Part shown: positions 1,692 to 21,037 of the stretch, piece after piece
Numbering within the stretch: the first letter of the stretch is position 1
Layout of the letters: each line of letters opens with the position of its first letter
Assembly (NCBI GenBank): GCA_947629255.1
Contig: CANRDF010000002.1
Coordinates: 44 to 64,043 of the forward strand
DNA: 64,000 nucleotides
Reading direction: 5' to 3'
Source of the DNA: an uncultured Bacilli bacterium
GTDB lineage: Bacteria; Bacillota_I; Bacilli_A; RF39; UBA660
Made by a program: the position numbers and the translations under genes
The notes under the pieces: model-generated
Databases searched by the model: none
Seen by the model: only the letters and a program-made list of their open reading frames with translations
Told to the model about the DNA's origin: nothing

Positions 1692-1742
1692 TATATTACT
1701 AAAAGTCACAAAAAAAGTAAAGAGAAAAGATTTTAAAAATTA

Positions 1743-1772
1743 CAAAAAAAATCAACTTTACATAAAAGTTGA
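1743..1772 (-). terminator. rho-independent terminator (bidirectional hairpin)
   Basis: 8-bp stem TCAACTTT/AAAGTTGA (1752-1759 / 1765-1772) with a 5-nt loop, followed on the minus strand by TTTTTTTTG. It separates the surface-protein/TR region from mraZ. Confidence 0.6.
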
Positions 1773-1976
1773 CATTTTTATTGATCAAAAATTTTTTCAT
1801 TTTTCCTCCAACATCATAAATAGTGCTGTTATCATTTGAAATATTTGTATAGGAAGTTTACGTATAAACTTCCATCTGCATAGTGAATTTGGGCTATATC
1901 CTGGATAAATAATGTCCCTTATCCCTCTCAAATTATAGCCTTAACCATAAAATCCACGTATTATAAGGGGCTACAG

Positions 1977-2070
1977 AAGGGCAGGCCAAACACCGTTGGA
2001 GTTGTTAGCATTGTTGTTGCTCAAATACCCGTTCGAATTCACATTGAACGCATTGTTAGAGTTAGACATA
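1977..2070 (-). repeat. DGR template-repeat (TR)-like non-coding copy of the surface-protein 3' end
   Basis: AAY-rich: 12 AAY codons in 24 when read in the VR frame. It aligns codon-for-codon with 2240-2335, with differences concentrated on its adenines, and shares the GC-rich 3' block CCTGCCCTT. Confidence 0.55.
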
Positions 2071-2164
2071 TTTAATTTACCCCCTTTAATTATCACCAAT
2101 CTTGAGTTTGTTGATAACTCACCTGGAAGCCGGGACGAACATCCGCCCGTCCAACGGCTCATGA

Positions 2165-4900
2165 CTACCCCGCCGTCAATTGAAACGGTAAACTTGAAGT
2201 TCCCGTACCGCCCGAGATGCTCACAGAGAATGACAGATAAAGGGCAGGCAACACACCGTAGGAGTAGTAAGTGCCGTAGCGGTAGTTGACAAACCCGCTC
2301 GAAAGAACAGCGAACACAGAGTTGGAGTAAGGCGAATACGGCGATAACGTCCACATCCAACCACTTCCTGGTTTTAACCAATCATTCGAAGCACATTGTG
2401 TCTGATAATCTTCACTATTCCAGTTATATAACGCTTTTGCAAAACAACCATCTCTTCCTGTTTCTCCTCCACTTGTTGCATATCCATAATCACTTGGATA
2501 TGGGAGTGCGATACTTTTGAATAAACCAGAATCAGGTACTTTTGTACTTGTAGTTTCTGCAGATGATCTTCCTGTGTTACTTGCTTGCCATTCTGTTACT
2601 CTTGCAAAAGGTAAACCTTTAGTATAAGCAGAAGTTCCTCTTTCTCTTTCATAAAACATACTTACTGTTACATCATTATAAGTACTACTGCCTCCTAGAT
2701 TCCATATAATATCTTTATCTATCATATCTCTTGCTGATTCTTCCAATCCTTTAGTTCCTGTATCTGTTCCATCAAATTGACACGTTGTTTGTGAAGAAAT
2801 AGAACCATTGCTTCCTTTATAACAAGATACATCTGAAGAAGAGTTATAATATCCATCATTTAACATTTCCATTAATTGACTATCCGTCCAATCATTACTT
2901 CCAGTATCACTTGTAGAACTTCCTATTCCATCATCTTTATAATCCCAACTAAAGTCTTTTTCATTTGCTTTAATAGGATCAGCTCTTATTATTTTTATTC
3001 TTTGTTGAATTCCACTTGTTGTTTTCACATTTACTAAACCGATAATCCTCCATAATTCATTATTGAATCTTACATAATTATCTGGATTTACTCCTGCATA
3101 TCTTAATTCTGTTACTTGCCATTTTGCATCCATCGTTGTTTGGTCTGTATGTGGAACTTCATATAAACCATTTCCAGTAGTCACTATTTCCACATCTTTT
3201 ATTACATCAGTTGCTAAACCACTTATATATATTGTTTGACTAACTTCATTTACATTTCCAACAACATCTTTCACTCTTAATGTTACTTTATGTGTTTTTC
3301 CATATTTAGGGACAATAAATTCATGACTATTATCTCCACTTGTCCATTCTTCACTGTCATCTAATTTATATTCATAAGAAGCAATATTTGACTCACTATC
3401 TGTACTTCCACTTGCATCTGCTGTTATTGTTTTACCATTTACACTTAATTTAAGATTTGCTACTGGTGAATTGTTATCTACCCAGTTTATGCTTATTGAA
3501 TCATGACTTACATTATTATAAGCATCTTTCGCATAAATGTAATAAGTTCCATTTTCTGTTACGGTATAATCTATACTATGACTCTTTGGATTATTTTCAA
3601 TTGTTTCCCAAGATTCTGGATTTTTTTCTTCTTTCATTACTTGATATCCAAAAAGTCCTGCTTTTTCATCACTTAGTTTTATATGAATCGTGTCACTGGC
3701 TCCCCATGTAATTAATTCATTTGAAAGTTCAATTGTTGGTGGATCTTTATCTATAATTTCTGTACTATATTTCATGGAACTGGTATGTCCCATTGCATCT
3801 TGAGCAAAAATATAATAAACTCCATTATCTTCTATTGTTTTGGTAATTACTTGTTCTTCTTTGGTATTTTCTATTTCTGTCCAACTTTCTGGAGGTTCTG
3901 GTGTACTTTCTGAAAGTAATGCGATTGGTGTTAAGTCTTCTTTAATAACTTGGTATTTTACTAATCCACTTTGGGAATCTTTTAATGTTATTTTTAATTC
4001 TACTGATTGATAATTATTTGTTTCTGTATAACTAATATCTGGTCCTGTGGTATCAATCTTTGTCACTTCAAATTCTTGTTCTTTTTCATTTCCTACTTCA
4101 TCTTTTACTGTAAAGTAATAGGTTCCTGCTTTGGTAAATGTTTCTGTCACTGTAAATGTTTTATCTTTTTTACTAATTGGTTTCCAATTTTGGGTTTCTT
4201 GTCTTTCACTAATTTTGTATTCTGTTAAATCATATTTATCACTTGTTGCTGTAAGTGTAATACTTTCACTTTCTTCGTTATATATATCTGTATTAGATTT
4301 GGCAAGAACATTTACATCATTTTTTAATTGTTCATTTGATTTGTAAGTTGCTGTTACTGTAATCTTACTTTTAAAATAAGCATTCATCACATCATCGATT
4401 GCTGGTGTAGTTTCTTCTAACCATAATCTTAAATGATATGTGACACTTTTATGTTCTCCATCTAATATTCCTGTCGTTAGTCTATGGGAAGCAGTTGCAT
4501 TTTCTATCGTTTGAGTTACACTTTCATAGCTATTCAATAATGTAGGAGTTCTATCATCTAGTTGTACTTTTATATATTGTTCGGGTAAAGGTTTTTGCCC
4601 TTCCTCTAAACTTAATGTTTCTAGATTTACTTGATAAGTTAAAGAAGTTGTACATACATTGGTAATTGTAAATTCATAAGGAGTTAATTCGTGTCCTTCT
4701 TCATCACTAATAGGATAAGCTTTTGGTAATGAAATTGGATTTTTTTCATCTGTTAAAGTCACTTGAAAACAACTAGATGCTAATCTATCTTCATCTGTTT
4801 GAAATGCTCGAAATTGCCAAAATGCATAAGAGATTCCTACAACACTTAAAACTAAAATACAAACCCCTATAATTATTAAACTTTTTTTCTTTCTTTCCAT
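2165..4900 (-). CDS. large surface protein with N-terminal signal/anchor, tandem Ig-like repeats and a variable lectin-like C-terminal domain
   Basis: 911 aa. N-terminal TM segment (LIIIGVCILVLSVVGISYAFW, reminiscent of SipW/TasA-type signals). About 4 tandem ~95-aa repeats (..GTYYFTVKDEVGN.., ..GVYYIFAQDAMGH.., ..GTYYIYAKDAYNN.., ..KVTLRVKDVVGN..). C-terminus reads WMWTLSP...GVLPALYL. Confidence 0.85.
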   Translation of the reverse strand: MERKKKSLIIIGVCILVLSVVGISYAFWQFRAFQTDEDRLASSCFQVTLTDEKNPISLPKAYPISDEEGHELTPYEFTITNVCTTSLTYQVNLETLSLEEGQKPLPEQYIKVQLDDRTPTLLNSYESVTQTIENATASHRLTTGILDGEHKSVTYHLRLWLEETTPAIDDVMNAYFKSKITVTATYKSNEQLKNDVNVLAKSNTDIYNEESESITLTATSDKYDLTEYKISERQETQNWKPISKKDKTFTVTETFTKAGTYYFTVKDEVGNEKEQEFEVTKIDTTGPDISYTETNNYQSVELKITLKDSQSGLVKYQVIKEDLTPIALLSESTPEPPESWTEIENTKEEQVITKTIEDNGVYYIFAQDAMGHTSSMKYSTEIIDKDPPTIELSNELITWGASDTIHIKLSDEKAGLFGYQVMKEEKNPESWETIENNPKSHSIDYTVTENGTYYIYAKDAYNNVSHDSISINWVDNNSPVANLKLSVNGKTITADASGSTDSESNIASYEYKLDDSEEWTSGDNSHEFIVPKYGKTHKVTLRVKDVVGNVNEVSQTIYISGLATDVIKDVEIVTTGNGLYEVPHTDQTTMDAKWQVTELRYAGVNPDNYVRFNNELWRIIGLVNVKTTSGIQQRIKIIRADPIKANEKDFSWDYKDDGIGSSTSDTGSNDWTDSQLMEMLNDGYYNSSSDVSCYKGSNGSISSQTTCQFDGTDTGTKGLEESARDMIDKDIIWNLGGSSTYNDVTVSMFYERERGTSAYTKGLPFARVTEWQASNTGRSSAETTSTKVPDSGLFKSIALPYPSDYGYATSGGETGRDGCFAKALYNWNSEDYQTQCASNDWLKPGSGWMWTLSPYSPYSNSVFAVLSSGFVNYRYGTYYSYGVLPALYLSFSVSISGGTGTSSLPFQLTAG
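2240..2335 (-). repeat. DGR variable-region (VR)-like segment inside the 911-aa ORF
   Basis: Encodes YSNSVFAVLSSGFVNYRYGTYYSYGVLPAL and pairs with the TR-like copy at 1977-2070. Part of a locally GC-rich patch. Confidence 0.55.
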
Positions 4901-15177: not shown

Positions 15178-15930
15178 TTATCCTCCTAATTCAAAATCAA
15201 GCATTTCCTTTGCAACACTTTCGTACAAGTCTTGTTCATGCTTTATCGTATCTATTAAAAACATTTTATCTTCTTTATAATTTTTAAGTCCTCTCATATA
15301 ATAAGGTTTATCATTATCAAGAACAATAAATGGCATGATATGATTTTTTAAACATTCTTTAAACATAATCATTCTACCTACTCTCCCATTCCCATCCCCA
15401 AAAGGATGAATACACTCAAAACGATAATGGAAATCAATAATATCTTCAATCGTTACCTTTTCTATTTCGTGATATTTCTTTAATAATTTATCTAAATCTT
15501 TTTCCACATTTTTTGGTGATGATGTATGAATCACATTGACAAGACCAATTTTATTGGGAACCACTTTAAAACCACCTACATTATATCGTGGATTTTCTTC
15601 ATCTGTCGTATTTCTTTTTAACATCATATTCATTTGAATCATGATTTCTTTAGTTAATGGTTCATCAATAATGTCTAAACAATAATCAAAGAGTCGAAAA
15701 TGATTTTTCATTTCCATTAAATCATCCAACTGAATTGCATTATTACTTTTTGGTATAAAAGAATTTGTTTCAAAAATTTCTTCTGTTTCATCTTCTGTGA
15801 GATGTCCGCCTTCTATTTTATTAGAATTATATGCAAAATTCACCTGTGAATAATGATAAATATTTCCTTTAAACTTTGATTTCCGCTGTTCTATAAGCTC
15901 TTCTTTTATTTTATCAATTAACATATCCAT
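15178..15930 (-). CDS. Fic/Fido-domain protein (probable AMPylase, class II auto-inhibited)
   Basis: 250 aa. Fic motif HPFGDGNGRVGR, plus an N-terminal SNKIEG matching the inhibitory [S/T]xxxE[G/N] motif. Confidence 0.85.
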   Translation of the reverse strand: MDMLIDKIKEELIEQRKSKFKGNIYHYSQVNFAYNSNKIEGGHLTEDETEEIFETNSFIPKSNNAIQLDDLMEMKNHFRLFDYCLDIIDEPLTKEIMIQMNMMLKRNTTDEENPRYNVGGFKVVPNKIGLVNVIHTSSPKNVEKDLDKLLKKYHEIEKVTIEDIIDFHYRFECIHPFGDGNGRVGRMIMFKECLKNHIMPFIVLDNDKPYYMRGLKNYKEDKMFLIDTIKHEQDLYESVAKEMLDFELGG

Positions 15931-16031
15931 GCTCCTTTAACAAAATAAGTATAACATAAACAAAACTAACTTACAAATTTTAGTATAACTATTAAATGGA
16001 CATCTTATAAATATATTATATTTCAATTATT

Positions 16032-16351
16032 GATAATATCTTTTACTTTCTTTTACTAAGTAAACTCCATCATAACTTAAATCATTAATTTGAGATGCTA
16101 TCTCATAAGAAAGTTGTCTTCCTTCTGGATGAACTCTTTCAATACTTGTTTTTTTACTGACATGATTCTTCTTTATTTTTTATTTGGTTTGGTATTAAAA
16201 CTAAAGATGTTGTGGAAAGTTTCGTAGCTAACACTTTTTGAAACACTTGAATATAAAAGACTCTTATCATAATAATAATTAAAATACATAAAAACATTAA
16301 AAAGAAAAAACGTATTCTTGTATGAATATCAGAAAAAAACATAAAAGTCAC
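16032..16351 (-). pseudogene. decayed duplicate of the 5' part of the PBP gene
   Basis: 16262-16373 is nearly identical to 14623-14735 (start codon, RBS and first 38 codons). 16032-16150 matches 14253-14385 with about 5 mismatches. Two internal deletions break the frame. Confidence 0.8.
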
Positions 16352-16387
16352 CTAGTACATTTTATGTTTCTTTTTTTAGAATCATTC

Positions 16388-16744
16388 TTATCGAATAATC
16401 TCAGACTGAAAATAACGTTCTTGAAATTCTGTTAAAGCACGAATGGCATCATCAGAGTAATCTTTACCGTCTTTGGATACGACTAATTTATCATCATTAT
16501 CATTTGTTCTATGAATGACTGCAATGACTTTTCCTTGACTTTCTTCCACTGGATCAAATTCGCCTATTAAATAAGCATCTAATTCTTCTCCATCCCCACT
16601 TATCGTATTTGGTATATAACCATAATTTAACATATACATAAATCCATGTTTAGGATGTTTAGTACCAAGTGGTCTATCAATTTGAACCACTACCTCTTTT
16701 CCTAAATAATCTTTCGCATTTGCTTCCATAAACATATCCTCCAT
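16388..16744 (-). CDS. small inorganic-pyrophosphatase-like protein
   Basis: 118 aa. The pattern NYGYIPNT...GDGEELDAYLIG...VIAVIHRTNDNDDKLV resembles the family I PPase core (DGDxLD). Confidence 0.55.
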   Translation of the reverse strand: MEDMFMEANAKDYLGKEVVVQIDRPLGTKHPKHGFMYMLNYGYIPNTISGDGEELDAYLIGEFDPVEESQGKVIAVIHRTNDNDDKLVVSKDGKDYSDDAIRALTEFQERYFQSEIIR

Positions 16745-16753
16745 TTCATTTAT

Positions 16754-18940
16754 CTAAAATAAATCATCTAATTTCACCCAATGGTTTGAATCAGATAAAT
16801 TTGAAATATATTTATTTGTATTTATTAAAACATAAGGAATTTCATCAATGAATCTTACAATGGAAAATACTACTTTTTTGTAATTTTCAAAACATTTTTT
16901 ATTTTTTTTCAAATAATTTGATATCGCATTGTATTTGAATTCTGTATGAGGATCTATATCTCTAAATCCTTTTGTTTCTAAAATAAATAATTCATTTTCT
17001 TGCGTTATTATTAAATAATCTGGATAAAATGGCAATGTTTCAGTAATCTTCGTTTCTTGTGATTTTACATTATACAAGATAGAAAAAAATTCTTCCCCCA
17101 TATCCCCATTTTTTAACCAACATTTTATTTTTTTATTTTTTAATAAATACTTACTAAATAAATACTCTGGCTCTTTTATAATATCATTATCATATAGAAA
17201 TTGAAAATCTGGTAATTTATTATAAATATAATTATTATCCATACTATCTATATATTTATTATAATAAGATCTTTCTGGAATGGTGTATATTCTAGTCGTT
17301 CTAAATTTTAAATTTGAATTTTCGTATTTATCAATTGCATCACGAATGATTAAAGATAATTGTTCTTTATTTGCTAAAAACATTTTTCTAAACTCTTTTC
17401 TATTTATCTTTGAGCTTTCAGCAATTGAGTATAAATAATTTGATATATTAAATTTGTTATATATTTTTTTTACATAATAATAAAATTTTTCTGATATATC
17501 TTTTTCAGAAACATCAATTTGTTTTTGGGCTTCCATTTCAAATTCATTATTATAAAATTTTTCTGAATCAATATCACCATCTAATATATTTCTCGTTATT
17601 TTTACATTTTTATTTAATTTTTTTATTTCTGGCGTGATGACTTTATATAATAATTCATATAATGTTTCCCCATCAATTAATCCAGAATATTGAATTGCCA
17701 TTTTTTCTGATACTAAATTCATAGCTTTTTTTTCAGCTACAAACTCATCTTTTATGATAGACATATTTAACTCAGAACGAATCTTACTTTTTAATTTTTC
17801 ATCTACTGTAATATTGTATTTAAAATTTTCGTCATCAGTATAAATATATGCTTTATTTAATTCTTGTTCTGTGTAATGATGTAATTGAGGCATTCTCATA
17901 ATTCTACCAATTGTTTGAATATCAAATATTATACTTGATGTTTCTCTTAATCGTATTAATATTTGAGATCTAGGACAATCCCAACCAGTTGCAACGGCTT
18001 GTTTAAAAATTAGAAATTCTACATCATTATTGACAATATCTTTTAAATTTTCTGATTTATTAGAGGCTAACCATATTGCTATTTTATCTTCTTCAATCCC
18101 AAAGGCTAATAATTTATTTTTTATTTTCTCACAGTTATCAATGGATGATGATTTATCTTTATCATAAGAAGAATCGTTTTCAATTTGTATAAGACATAGA
18201 GGTATAATTTCACTACCATTTGATTTATATAATTCTTGCAAATGATTTCTTTTTTCTATTGCCTTTTTAATTAAATTATCAACAAATAAAGAATTTTTTT
18301 CTATTTTTAAATCATCGTTGATATCTACAATTGACTTAATTAATCCCTCTGCAATCACATCATCTATTTCAACATTAATATGTTTACCTATAATATCTTT
18401 AGGGGTTGCAGTTACATAAATTGTCAAAAAAGGATCTATTTTATCAATAATATTTTGTGATATTTCAGTTGTAGAAGTATCATGGGCTTCATCAATAATT
18501 AAAATCAGTTTAGAAACTCGATTATTAAGAATAAAATCTAAGCCATTGAAATCTCCATTTCTCCAGGCAATATTATTATCACTATTTAATTTTTGCCAAT
18601 CGGTAAAAACGGCATCATTACTTTTTAATTCTTGATTTACTAAGATATCTTTTAACAGCAAACAATTGATATCTGTTGACATATTAGAGATCTTTTTCAT
18701 ACTTTGTTCATCTAATTTTCCTCTTCCTGGACTAATCCAGAAAAAGACAATATCACTATTAGAATCTAAAGATTTCAGTCTTGTTATTAAAGTATTCATG
18801 TATTTCCCTAACATCATTGTTTTTCCACTACCTACAGGCGCAGAAAAAGTAATATCAATATGTTGTTCATCCATATTATTTATTGTATATCTTAATAATT
18901 CGTTTATTGCTTTTTCTTGAAATTCAAACTTTTTCATCAT
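16754..18940 (-). CDS. Type III restriction enzyme Res subunit (SF2 helicase plus C-terminal PD-(D/E)XK)
   Basis: 728 aa. Walker A APVGSGKT, DEAH-like IIDEAHD, and C-terminal PDYLII...FILETKG. Its start overlaps the mod stop (TAATG at 18940). Confidence 0.8.
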   Translation of the reverse strand: MMKKFEFQEKAINELLRYTINNMDEQHIDITFSAPVGSGKTMMLGKYMNTLITRLKSLDSNSDIVFFWISPGRGKLDEQSMKKISNMSTDINCLLLKDILVNQELKSNDAVFTDWQKLNSDNNIAWRNGDFNGLDFILNNRVSKLILIIDEAHDTSTTEISQNIIDKIDPFLTIYVTATPKDIIGKHINVEIDDVIAEGLIKSIVDINDDLKIEKNSLFVDNLIKKAIEKRNHLQELYKSNGSEIIPLCLIQIENDSSYDKDKSSSIDNCEKIKNKLLAFGIEEDKIAIWLASNKSENLKDIVNNDVEFLIFKQAVATGWDCPRSQILIRLRETSSIIFDIQTIGRIMRMPQLHHYTEQELNKAYIYTDDENFKYNITVDEKLKSKIRSELNMSIIKDEFVAEKKAMNLVSEKMAIQYSGLIDGETLYELLYKVITPEIKKLNKNVKITRNILDGDIDSEKFYNNEFEMEAQKQIDVSEKDISEKFYYYVKKIYNKFNISNYLYSIAESSKINRKEFRKMFLANKEQLSLIIRDAIDKYENSNLKFRTTRIYTIPERSYYNKYIDSMDNNYIYNKLPDFQFLYDNDIIKEPEYLFSKYLLKNKKIKCWLKNGDMGEEFFSILYNVKSQETKITETLPFYPDYLIITQENELFILETKGFRDIDPHTEFKYNAISNYLKKNKKCFENYKKVVFSIVRFIDEIPYVLINTNKYISNLSDSNHWVKLDDLF

Positions 18941-20919
18941 TAGTTAATTCCTTTCATAAAATCTTCTGGAATCCTGCCAATTTCTAAACCTAAATTCACA
19001 ATATTTGCATCATTCATATTTTCCGAACGAACATAAATTTTATAAGTATGGGCCTTAGTAATCATTGATTTTATCTTATCAATATCCTTTGTTTTTGCAA
19101 CAATTTCAGGATAAATGAATATATATTTATCATCAGAAGAAATAGTATAAAATTTTTCATAATGAGTTATTTTATTTACATCTTCTTTTAACATGATATA
19201 CGAATTTATTTCTTTCATTACTTTGTCTTTCGTATCCATTTCATCATCTTCTTTTTCAATAAGACCTACATGATAATAGAGTAAATTTTCATCGACACCA
19301 TCTATTTTTTTATTTTCTTTCGTTATTCCTTCAATAATAATATCATTATTTTTAAAAATTTTTTTTAATTCATCATATTTATTACTATTTTCCACGAATA
19401 CTGTTTCCATAGAAGATATAATATCTTTAAAATTGTTTTTTATATCTTTTAAAGTGATTTTTGTTCTATATAACTCTGTTCTTTGGTTTCCGTTAGACTT
19501 GTACCCATTTATAAAATTTGATAATCTTTTATATGTGATATTGCGACAAATACCTAACTGTTGATATTCTTCTTCCTTTTTTAATTGTTTATAATCTTCT
19601 GAATCTTTCAATGCGTAATAAGAATTCATAAAATCTTTATATTCTTTTGACTTTTTAGATAGAGGCATCTTTGGCAAAAGTCCTTTTCGTATAAGATAAT
19701 CTATTTCTACATCTTCATCCACTTCATTGTTCGTACATAAAAAGAATCTTCTACTTCCATTGTCCATTTTATTTAATTCCATGACTGCTTGGCCAGTCGT
19801 ACCAGATCCTGCAAAAAAATCTAATATGATTGCATCATTTCTAGGACACGCGATTGTTATTAATCTTTTAATTAAATCTGTAGGTTTCGGAAATGGAAAT
19901 GTAGTATCTTCTTTATTTAATTCTAAAACTTCTTTTAATTGATTTTTACCAGTAATAGAAGTATGAACATCTGTTAGAACACTGCTTTGAACATTTAGAC
20001 TTGGCCCATTCACAAACTTTTTTTCTCTTGGAACTCCATCACCATTTTTGCTAAAAAATATTTCATTATTTGCAAGTTTCTTTTCATATTCTTCCTTTGA
20101 TAAAGTCCAATTTCTAGTATATTCTTTACCAGTAGGAGTTATAATCGTATAATACTTACTTCCTGTAGTAGATTTAATACCATTTCTAGCAATATTCGCG
20201 GAAAACCAAGGGCCTCGAGGATCTTTGTCTGGATTAGAACATTCTGAAGTTAATGTTCTAATTGCAGAGTATTTTCCTAATTTAGGTGTTGATTTGTAAC
20301 AAGCAATAATATATTCATGTTCGATTCTAACAGTATTCGATGGTGTTTTTTCAAAAGAACCTTCTGATTTATCATTTAGATACCAAATATAAGATTCCAC
20401 TCGATCATAGCCAAAAATAGAATCACATAACATTCTTAAAGGTGCATGTTCAACATCATCAATACTTATAAACATAACACCATCATCTTTTAATAATTCT
20501 TTTGCTAGTTTTAATCTTTTATTCATGAAAGAAATCCATTTACTATGTTTCCATACATCATCGGGATTTACTTTTTTATCGTTGTATGAGTAATCACCAC
20601 CACGATTATAAGGTGGATCTATATAAATTACATCAATAGAATTGGTATGTGTTTGCTTTAATATTTTTAAAAATTGGTAATTGTCTGATTCCACCAAAAT
20701 ATTATTATTAATTGATTTATTAATAATACTTCTTGACTTGTCAAAAATTAAGTATGGAATGTTTTTTTCCATTAAATTGGCAATATCTTCTGGCTGATCT
20801 TCCCAAATCAAGCCAAACCTTTTACTATTTGCTTTTTTGTTTAGATCAAAAATCAAATCAATTAAATTTTCTTTAGACATGTTTGCAATATTGTTTTCAA
20901 TTTCTTTTTTACTGTTCAT
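18940..20919 (-). CDS. Type III DNA methyltransferase Mod subunit (beta-class N6A/N4C MTase)
   Basis: Motif IV IDPPYN precedes motif I DFFAGSGTT. I prefer the ATG at 20919 (MNSKKEI) because of the RBS GGGAAGAGG upstream. The ORF track extends to 20940. Confidence 0.85.
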   Translation of the reverse strand: MNSKKEIENNIANMSKENLIDLIFDLNKKANSKRFGLIWEDQPEDIANLMEKNIPYLIFDKSRSIINKSINNNILVESDNYQFLKILKQTHTNSIDVIYIDPPYNRGGDYSYNDKKVNPDDVWKHSKWISFMNKRLKLAKELLKDDGVMFISIDDVEHAPLRMLCDSIFGYDRVESYIWYLNDKSEGSFEKTPSNTVRIEHEYIIACYKSTPKLGKYSAIRTLTSECSNPDKDPRGPWFSANIARNGIKSTTGSKYYTIITPTGKEYTRNWTLSKEEYEKKLANNEIFFSKNGDGVPREKKFVNGPSLNVQSSVLTDVHTSITGKNQLKEVLELNKEDTTFPFPKPTDLIKRLITIACPRNDAIILDFFAGSGTTGQAVMELNKMDNGSRRFFLCTNNEVDEDVEIDYLIRKGLLPKMPLSKKSKEYKDFMNSYYALKDSEDYKQLKKEEEYQQLGICRNITYKRLSNFINGYKSNGNQRTELYRTKITLKDIKNNFKDIISSMETVFVENSNKYDELKKIFKNNDIIIEGITKENKKIDGVDENLLYYHVGLIEKEDDEMDTKDKVMKEINSYIMLKEDVNKITHYEKFYTISSDDKYIFIYPEIVAKTKDIDKIKSMITKAHTYKIYVRSENMNDANIVNLGLEIGRIPEDFMKGIN

Positions 20920-21037
20920 AAATACCTCTTCCCACATCATTTTATCGAAAATTATTATATCATAAAACCCATTATTTTTCTATGAATTCAAAAACATTTG
21001 TATAAAAGCAATAAAAAAGAAGTCATTTTTTTTTGAC

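Follow-up and report, generated by a model that had tools for sequence, protein, structure and literature searches.

Diversity-generating retroelements (DGRs) that contain a gene for a MutS-like protein (MSL) correspond to "Architecture D" of Wu et al. 2018, and the Legionella DGR carries such a gene (PMC5758913). In Bordetella phage BPP-1, the RNA flanking the template repeat (TR) is required for cDNA synthesis (bioRxiv 10.1101/2023.10.23.563531), and DGRs of the phage type have a target hairpin that lies 4-34 bp after the variable repeat (VR) and carries a GRNA tetraloop (PMC3240598). The domain DUF6273 is already known as a DGR target, with the VR located C-terminally (PMC11792537), and has been reported to be similar to the C-type lectin fold (PMC10743442). 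TRs on the opposite strand, MSL accessory genes, and remote targets have all been documented in DGRs (PMC5758913). Here, we analyzed a 64,000-nt stretch of an uncultured Bacilli bacterium of the RF39 lineage (GenBank assembly GCA_947629255.1, contig CANRDF010000002.1, positions 44 to 64,043), referred to as the window, in which a gene for a 911-aa surface protein ends in a VR and is followed by a non-coding TR. Judged from its sequence, this region is near certain to be of DGR origin. It is probably the target-side half of an MSL/Avd-type DGR that has lost its enzyme genes and is now a decoupled relic. The features of the region, from the target gene toward mraZ, are as follows:

2165-4900, minus strand: DGR target gene, 911 aa (open reading frame [ORF] and translation)
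2240-2337, minus strand: VR with a GC content of 0.53, closed by the shared GC-rich block GGTGTGTTGCCTGCCCTT (2257 to 2240)
2127-2160, minus strand: GC-rich hairpin directly after the stop codon, with an 8-bp inner stem, a GGAU loop, and an outer stem that extends it
2072-2126, minus strand: pre-TR spacer, with a promoter-like TTATCA-17-GATAAT (2117 to 2089) and a AAAGGGGG motif
1977-2071, minus strand: non-coding TR, with 12 AAY codons in the VR frame, ending in the initiation of mutagenic homing (IMH)*-like GGTGTTTGGCCTGCCCTT (1994 to 1977)
1849-1976, minus strand: post-TR RNA domain, with hairpins P1 (1950 to 1933), P2 (1924 to 1903), and P4 (1873 to 1852)
1744-1772, minus strand: terminator-like 9-bp AT-rich hairpin followed by T8, which closes the TR/post-TR unit shortly before the promoter region of mraZ

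A first-pass annotation of this DNA, made from the letters alone, had described a GC-rich patch with a DGR-like VR/TR pair at the 3' end of the target gene, and the computed alignment bears this out. GC content is 0.43-0.535 across 2001-2400 (200-nt windows) compared with ~0.30 in the surrounding sequence. The VR (2337 to 2240, within the ORF) pairs with the non-coding TR (2071 to 1977) on the minus strand, with a local alignment score of 83 compared with 20 ± 3 for shuffled TR. The alignment spans 95 columns, with 28 mismatches and a single gap, which is the 3-nt indel noticed earlier by hand. When mismatches were tabulated by TR base, 17 of 28 adenines differed from the VR, compared with 11 of 67 other bases (Fisher P = 4e-5), and the proposed adenine bias is therefore present. 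Direct counting gave the 12 AAY codons that had been claimed (among 25 TR codons, in frame with the VR reading frame), and 11 of the 12 are changed in the VR when the earlier hand alignment is used. In the frame of the ORF, the TR reads MSNSNNAFNVNSNGYLSNNNANNSNGVWPAL. Both copies share the GC-rich 3' block CCTGCCCTT, directly after which the similarity ends; L067 and L074, two of the related loci introduced below, show the same IMH/IMH*-type boundary. Adenine-specific transfer from TR to VR and a GC-rich shared 3' boundary of this kind are also features of BPP-1. The window TR is among only five genuine TRs in ~1 Mb of target loci.

Two ORFs called across the repeats are not genes. The Asn-rich 32-aa mini-ORF that had been noted over the TR (ATG 2069 to TAG 1971) does exist, but it was rejected as a gene because relatives have no start codon at that position. 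Coordinates 1971-2381 (minus strand) correspond to a mechanical 136-aa ORF with a TTG start, which extends in another frame from the VR through the whole TR and is almost certainly spurious.

The DGR reading of the pair is further supported by the same layout in relatives that encode a reverse transcriptase (RT). We compared the window with target loci from related gut Bacilli/Tenericutes metagenome-assembled genomes (MAGs) and metagenomes, designated here by L-numbers. Only 2 of 79 target loci (L038 and L074) have an RT gene within 10 kb, and both RTs are of the DGR type (GLPIGNxxSQ...YMDD). The order in L038 is target, post-stop GC hairpin, spacer, TR, post-TR segment of ~125-150 nt, MutS_I-like ORF, bAvd-like ORF, RVT_1 RT, and a small ORF. 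In Pfam, the relatives' proteins match RVT_1 (E ~1e-17), bAvd (E ~1e-5), and, weakly, MutS_I (E = 0.004), and the MSL assignment reflects this sub-threshold match and the conserved position only. The Avd-like ORF also matches the NCBIfam model DivGenRetAVD (E = 7e-7). Among solved structures, the RT is best matched by a 328-aa "Reverse transcriptase" (8ub7, E = 2e-17), a chain that we take to be bRT. Scanning metagenomes with the RT yielded fourteen more loci of the same clade, eleven of them also with a TR, and RTs stand beside homologous TRs in L038, L074, L086-L092, and L095-L098. In about half of the RT-linked loci (L074, L090-L092, and L095-L098), TR and RT occupy opposite strands and the TR converges on the RT; the template is therefore its own transcription unit. 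L095-L098 hold two template modules per RT. The second TR/post-TR module lies across the RT cassette (L096 2471-2665, minus strand, and likewise in L095, L097, and L098), is 21 nt shorter, has no adjacent target, and sits beside a transposase-like 324-aa ORF. It is common for metagenome contigs (L004, L006, and several others) to break off inside the TR or no more than a few hundred bases past the VR, which is consistent with assembly breaks from the VR/TR repeats or with population-level VR variation.

The relatives resemble the MSL-containing DGRs in their small MutS_I-like ORF, Avd-like ORF, and DGR-type RT, and in having a chromosomal surface-protein target with the VR at the C-terminus. 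They differ in the extra small ORF after the RT and in their hosts, which are AT-rich gut Bacilli rather than Proteobacteria, and the window differs from them all in being without any protein genes of the element. As in the DGRs of Treponema denticola (PMC5758913), one template appears to serve many scattered paralogous surface-protein genes (seven VRs in one related MAG). Unlike Treponema, in which the accessory gene is HRDC (PMC5758913), the relatives have MSL and Avd, the target domain is DUF6273-like, and the target in the window keeps its own, out-of-register TR.

The sequence downstream of the TR links the window directly to the RT-bearing loci. Using a post-TR profile built from nine loci, nhmmer matched window positions 1970 to 1849 over profile positions 2-125 (E = 4.2e-25). 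RNAalifold predicts two hairpins in the post-TR family, with 10 of 14 pairs covarying, and the window retains both. Its P4 hairpin has a perfect 9-bp stem, with the UACG loop inside an invariant ATACGT. At columns that are invariant in RT-linked copies, the window keeps 32 of 36 and differs at 4, although this is a weak test of decay, given that L038 misses 18 of 54 when left out of the set. A third helix around the UACG hairpin, with compensatory changes, is seen in L086/L089, L038, L074, and L090. By eye, the window is unable to form this enclosing helix, and MAFFT leaves its 3' strand unaligned. No known RNA family was found in 1600-2500 (Rfam, E ≤ 1). By analogy, the post-TR segment is plausibly the equivalent of the TR-flanking RNA of BPP-1, with which the locus shares the presence of a conserved post-TR RNA. 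The order differs: target, TR, accessory genes, and RT in this family, compared with target, avd, TR, and RT in BPP-1.

Between the target gene and the TR, the GC-rich stem-loop that had been predicted is present, but it lies at 2160 to 2127, directly after the stop codon, and not at 2110-2145. It folds with -22 kcal/mol (z = -2.1), and L006 and L011 have this element after their stop codons as well. Analogous GC hairpins with compensatory stem changes are found at ~15 of the 70 paralogous targets, and every target with a TR is among them. Long GC-rich hairpins without a T-run after the stop codon were observed in the window and in L011, L013, L027, L032, L035, L038, L059, L067, L068, L069, L074, and L079, and in one subgroup the post-stop hairpin is followed by the conserved motif CTAGTTATCCACA. 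Unlike the BPP-1-type signal, the hairpin in the window lies ~80 nt after the VR, beyond the stop codon, and has the loop GGAU. The pre-TR spacer is 86-96% identical to L011 and L006, and its AAAGGG(A/G) motif also occurs upstream of the TR in L038, L067, and L004; the promoter-like site within it is a consensus match only. At the other end of the unit, the strong terminator that had been proposed (1743-1772) is supported at 1772 to 1744 by its fold (-11.6 kcal/mol, z = -3.3), which none of 200 shuffles equaled; its AT-rich stem explains why a simple scan for terminators overlooked it. A 33-aa ORF at 1699-1800 (minus strand) has a good ribosome-binding site, starts right behind the post-TR domain, where relatives begin the MutS-like gene, and shares "FYV" with it. 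Its similarity to the MSL N-terminus ("NFYVK" compared with "GKFYEV") has no statistical support, as tblastn finds nothing and the region is of low complexity, and we do not claim the ORF as an MSL remnant.

The target protein belongs to a large family whose hypervariable positions coincide with the template. It has an N-terminal hydrophobic anchor, PKD/Ig-like repeats (with a PKD_4 match at residues 476-559), and a C-terminal DUF6273-like domain of ~340 aa that ends in the VR. A search with the C-terminal 341 aa returned 4,215 homologues, the closest of which are 59-62% identical to the window protein; the protein itself, like its species, is not represented in the collections searched. The homologues come from gut "uncultured Bacilli/Tenericutes" MAGs (rabbit, human, chicken, and mouse), each with many paralogues. 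At their C-termini, fixed residues alternate with hypervariable ones (WTLxPxSxSxxVFxVxSxGxV...GVWPALYL), and the Asn codons of the TR sit exactly at these hypervariable positions.

As in the gut-phage DUF6273 targets (Faecalibacterium prophages, PMC11792537; tentaclins, PMC10743442), the VR lies at the C-terminal end of a DUF6273-like domain. The Pfam match to DUF6273 is below the cut-off (E = 0.004) and covers the C-terminal part of the profile, over the VR end. An AlphaFold2 model of the C-terminal domain (pLDDT 92.9) weakly matched DUF6273 phage proteins in BFVD with E values of 1e-5 to 1e-3 and TM-scores of 0.3-0.4. The sub-threshold Pfam match and these TM-scores set the protein apart from the gut-phage targets, as does its being a cellular, membrane-anchored protein with many paralogues in a core chromosomal neighborhood. 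Foldseek searches of PDB with the model gave no match to Mtd or TvpA, and a profile search of PDB sequences with the C-terminal domain found nothing. The sole significant PDB neighbor of the model (2165-3190) is the immunoglobulin A (IgA) peptidase of Thomasclavelia ramosa (9qa6, E = 1.5e-8, TM-score 0.42), which, on this structural comparison, may share this surface-protein module.

The window belongs to the core chromosome and carries no detectable enzyme genes of a DGR. As the first-pass annotation had stated, the mraZ operon follows the terminator directly, with mraZ (1212-1646) and then rsmH (286-1215). Upstream of the target gene are rpe, rsgA, and genes for a PASTA kinase, PP2C, MraY, and a penicillin-binding protein, and farther along are a type III restriction-modification pair with a Fic gene, LytR-CpsA-Psr (LCP) proteins, and polysaccharide genes. 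The Fic-domain gene and the restriction-modification pair (a ResIII helicase-like protein of 728 aa and an N6/N4 methylase of 666 aa) occupy 15178-20940, between cell-division/cell-wall genes and two LCP genes. The earlier report that the 64 kb hold no RT or Avd also stands: a YxDD scan revealed no RT-like frame, and tblastn gave nothing above chance. Two RTs of the family and their accessory proteins, including Avd and MSL, had no match in the 64 kb at E ≤ 1, and eight further RTs (six of the same family and two more distant) gave chance-level matches only (E ≥ 0.4). No second TR was seen in the window.

The pair in the window is out of register in a way that the relatives' pairs are not. In L038, 21 of 22 VR/TR mismatches fall at adenines, as do 18 of 18 in L067 and all of those inside the TR in L074. 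The window pair has 11 non-adenine mismatches and the 3-nt indel, compared with 0-1 non-adenine mismatches in the three relatives' pairs tabulated, so that its differences are not almost exclusively at TR adenines, as those of a pair still in use should be. When the non-adenine mismatch sites were compared with the VRs of five relatives, the TR was deviant at 6, the VR was deviant at 4, and one was ambiguous. Counting non-adenine positions only, the window VR differs at 4 from the template reconstructed from relatives and at 11 from the adjacent TR, which itself departs from the template inferred from the relatives' VRs by ~6-8 substitutions. The private changes of both copies are mostly GC to AT, as expected if two copies were drifting independently and unconstrained in a genome of 30% GC. 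No VR among all loci compared is in step with the window TR; the nearest has 6-7 non-adenine mismatches. Given the 11 non-adenine mismatches, the extra codon, and the private changes on both copies, the VR in its present form does not stem from the adjacent TR. The indel carries less weight because codon indels in the AAY run occur in the RT-linked pair L096, in the synchronized targets of the MAG Lapin-022__bin59, and in published DGRs, where 3-nt indels beside AAC have been attributed to slippage (PMC5758913).

Related loci retain varying amounts of the downstream module and can be arranged by stage of loss:

Hairpin only: L027, L032, and L035
Hairpin and part of the pre-TR spacer: L011 (the closest genome) and L079
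The same plus a truncated TR: L004
TR and post-TR RNA without the RT cassette: the window
MSL residue 26 fused to RT residue 264 by a clean internal deletion, the VR/TR pair still differing at adenines only (18 of 18): L067 (4750-5040)
Complete: L038, L074, and L086-L098

L067 is a very recently disabled DGR. The window locus is not syntenic with L011 (mraZ downstream in the former and truB in the latter); the loci are therefore dispersed paralogues that took more or less of the downstream module with them. In genomes that have an RT, too, remote paralogues (L033 and L059) can be out of step with the TR present there.

Taken together with the family and with established DGR biology, these comparisons suggest the following history. 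The TR and its flanking RNA would have been transcribed, an RT with Avd would have copied the TR RNA into cDNA with misincorporation opposite adenines, and the mutagenized cDNA would have replaced the VR, re-coding the AAY positions. The genes for the MutS-like protein, Avd-like protein, RT, and small ORF would then have been lost, while the target, hairpin, TR, post-TR RNA, and terminator stayed. TR and VR would have drifted apart since, as one stage in an erosion series among paralogous targets. The part of this reading that concerns the adjacent TR, namely that it is a relic, decoupled from the VR, that does not serve as its template today, is likely to be correct. Whether the VR is frozen or is rewritten from a distance is a roughly even choice, with frozen slightly favored; the first-pass annotation had offered both a fossil DGR and a remote target serviced in trans.

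Several observations weigh against this reading. The window VR has the same GC content (0.53) as RT-linked pairs (0.52-0.56), much higher than the 0.28-0.40 of long-dead paralogues; therefore, any decoupling is not ancient, or the VR is still refreshed. The retention of 32 of 36 invariant post-TR columns and of the hairpins could reflect continuing selection instead of recent detachment. Accepted DGR targets in a curated survey have up to 11 non-adenine differences (PMC5758913). The inferred template derives from the VRs of other species, and the master template of the window genome, if there is one, may differ from it. Finally, the VRs of seven targets on seven contigs of Lapin-022__bin59 differ only in the NN of NNC/NNT codons. 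With neither an RT nor a TR near any of the targets in the flanks examined (≤10 kb per side and less at contig ends), remote servicing appears normal in the family, and it looks, from these sequences, as if one template services at least seven remote targets in that genome. These seven targets are L013, L015, L018, L022, L023, L025, and L030, with 3n indels in the AAC run. Across ~70 target loci (L007-L084), VR GC content is continuous from 0.65 to 0.28, with gene bodies at ~0.32.

The strongest alternative, which we regard as less probable but serious, is that the VR is still diversified by a complete DGR elsewhere in the chromosome and that the adjacent TR is a leftover. The two readings treat the adjacent TR alike and part only over the VR, frozen in one and active in the other; since that TR is not the template of the VR, the source, if the VR is still serviced, would be another TR elsewhere. 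The GC content of the VR and the synchronized targets of Lapin-022__bin59 both speak for it, and the scarcity of RTs within 10 kb of target loci, the normality of an additional codon in the AAY run, and the short distance of 4 non-adenine steps to the relatives' inferred template point the same way. Remote DGR targets >100 kb away have been documented (PMC5758913) and count in its favor as well. Set against these are the lack of an RT or a second TR in the 64 kb and the nature of the VR's own changes: three of its four private non-adenine changes are GC to AT, including one at an otherwise conserved Trp (TGG to TTG, Trp to Leu in GVWPALYL). L033 and L059, the two remote paralogues sampled from genomes with an RT, also argue against it, being out of step with the TR.

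We consider it improbable that the adjacent TR and post-TR RNA are instead an active satellite template used in trans by a distant RT/Avd, acting on this VR with non-canonical copying or on VRs elsewhere in the genome. The TR does retain an open VR frame, its 12 AAY codons, and an IMH*-like end, and it has a promoter-like site upstream and a conserved post-TR segment and terminator downstream. The separate transcription of the TR in about half of the RT-linked loci and the two modules per RT in L095-L098 would suit such a template, and the Gly-Tyr-Leu encoded at the TAT TTG position of the TR also occurs in VRs of other lineages. The mismatch counts are hard to reconcile with it, however, both those against the adjacent VR (11 non-adenine compared with 0-1 in the relatives' pairs) and those against the nearest VR among the loci compared (6-7), as are the helix around the UACG hairpin that cannot form in the window (by eye) and the 4 changes at columns invariant in RT-linked copies. 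A broader form of this idea, to which we give similarly little credence, is a distributed DGR in these gut Bacilli, in which free-standing, separately transcribed TR/RNA "template genes" would be duplicated and scattered, and one distant RT/Avd/MSL cassette would work with orphan copies such as that in the window. If true, this would be a multi-template DGR, with one enzyme set and several templates, each serving its own subset of paralogous targets. Lastly, an origin without a DGR, through ordinary tandem duplication of the 3' end of the gene or chance similarity in a GC-rich patch, would accommodate the many non-adenine mismatches, the indel, and the lack of an RT in the window, but it is effectively refuted by the alignment score relative to shuffled TR, the adenine bias, the relatives' adenine-only pairs, the placement of TR Asn codons exactly where homologues are hypervariable, and the homology of the flanking RNA to that of RT-linked DGRs.

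All features of the locus are within known DGR variation, and no new mechanism emerges from it. Its value is as a clean, datable intermediate of DGR decay, in which template, flanking RNA, and target are recognizable after the loss of the enzyme genes, and for which relatives provide every earlier and later stage of module loss. DGR finders that are anchored on the RT will miss such targets and orphan templates. In AT-rich genomes, the GC content of the VR is a possible rough clock for the time since the last retrohoming. These small-genome gut Bacilli carry up to seven or more paralogous DUF6273-like proteins per genome, apparently with one template, and a dedicated study of them may be worthwhile.

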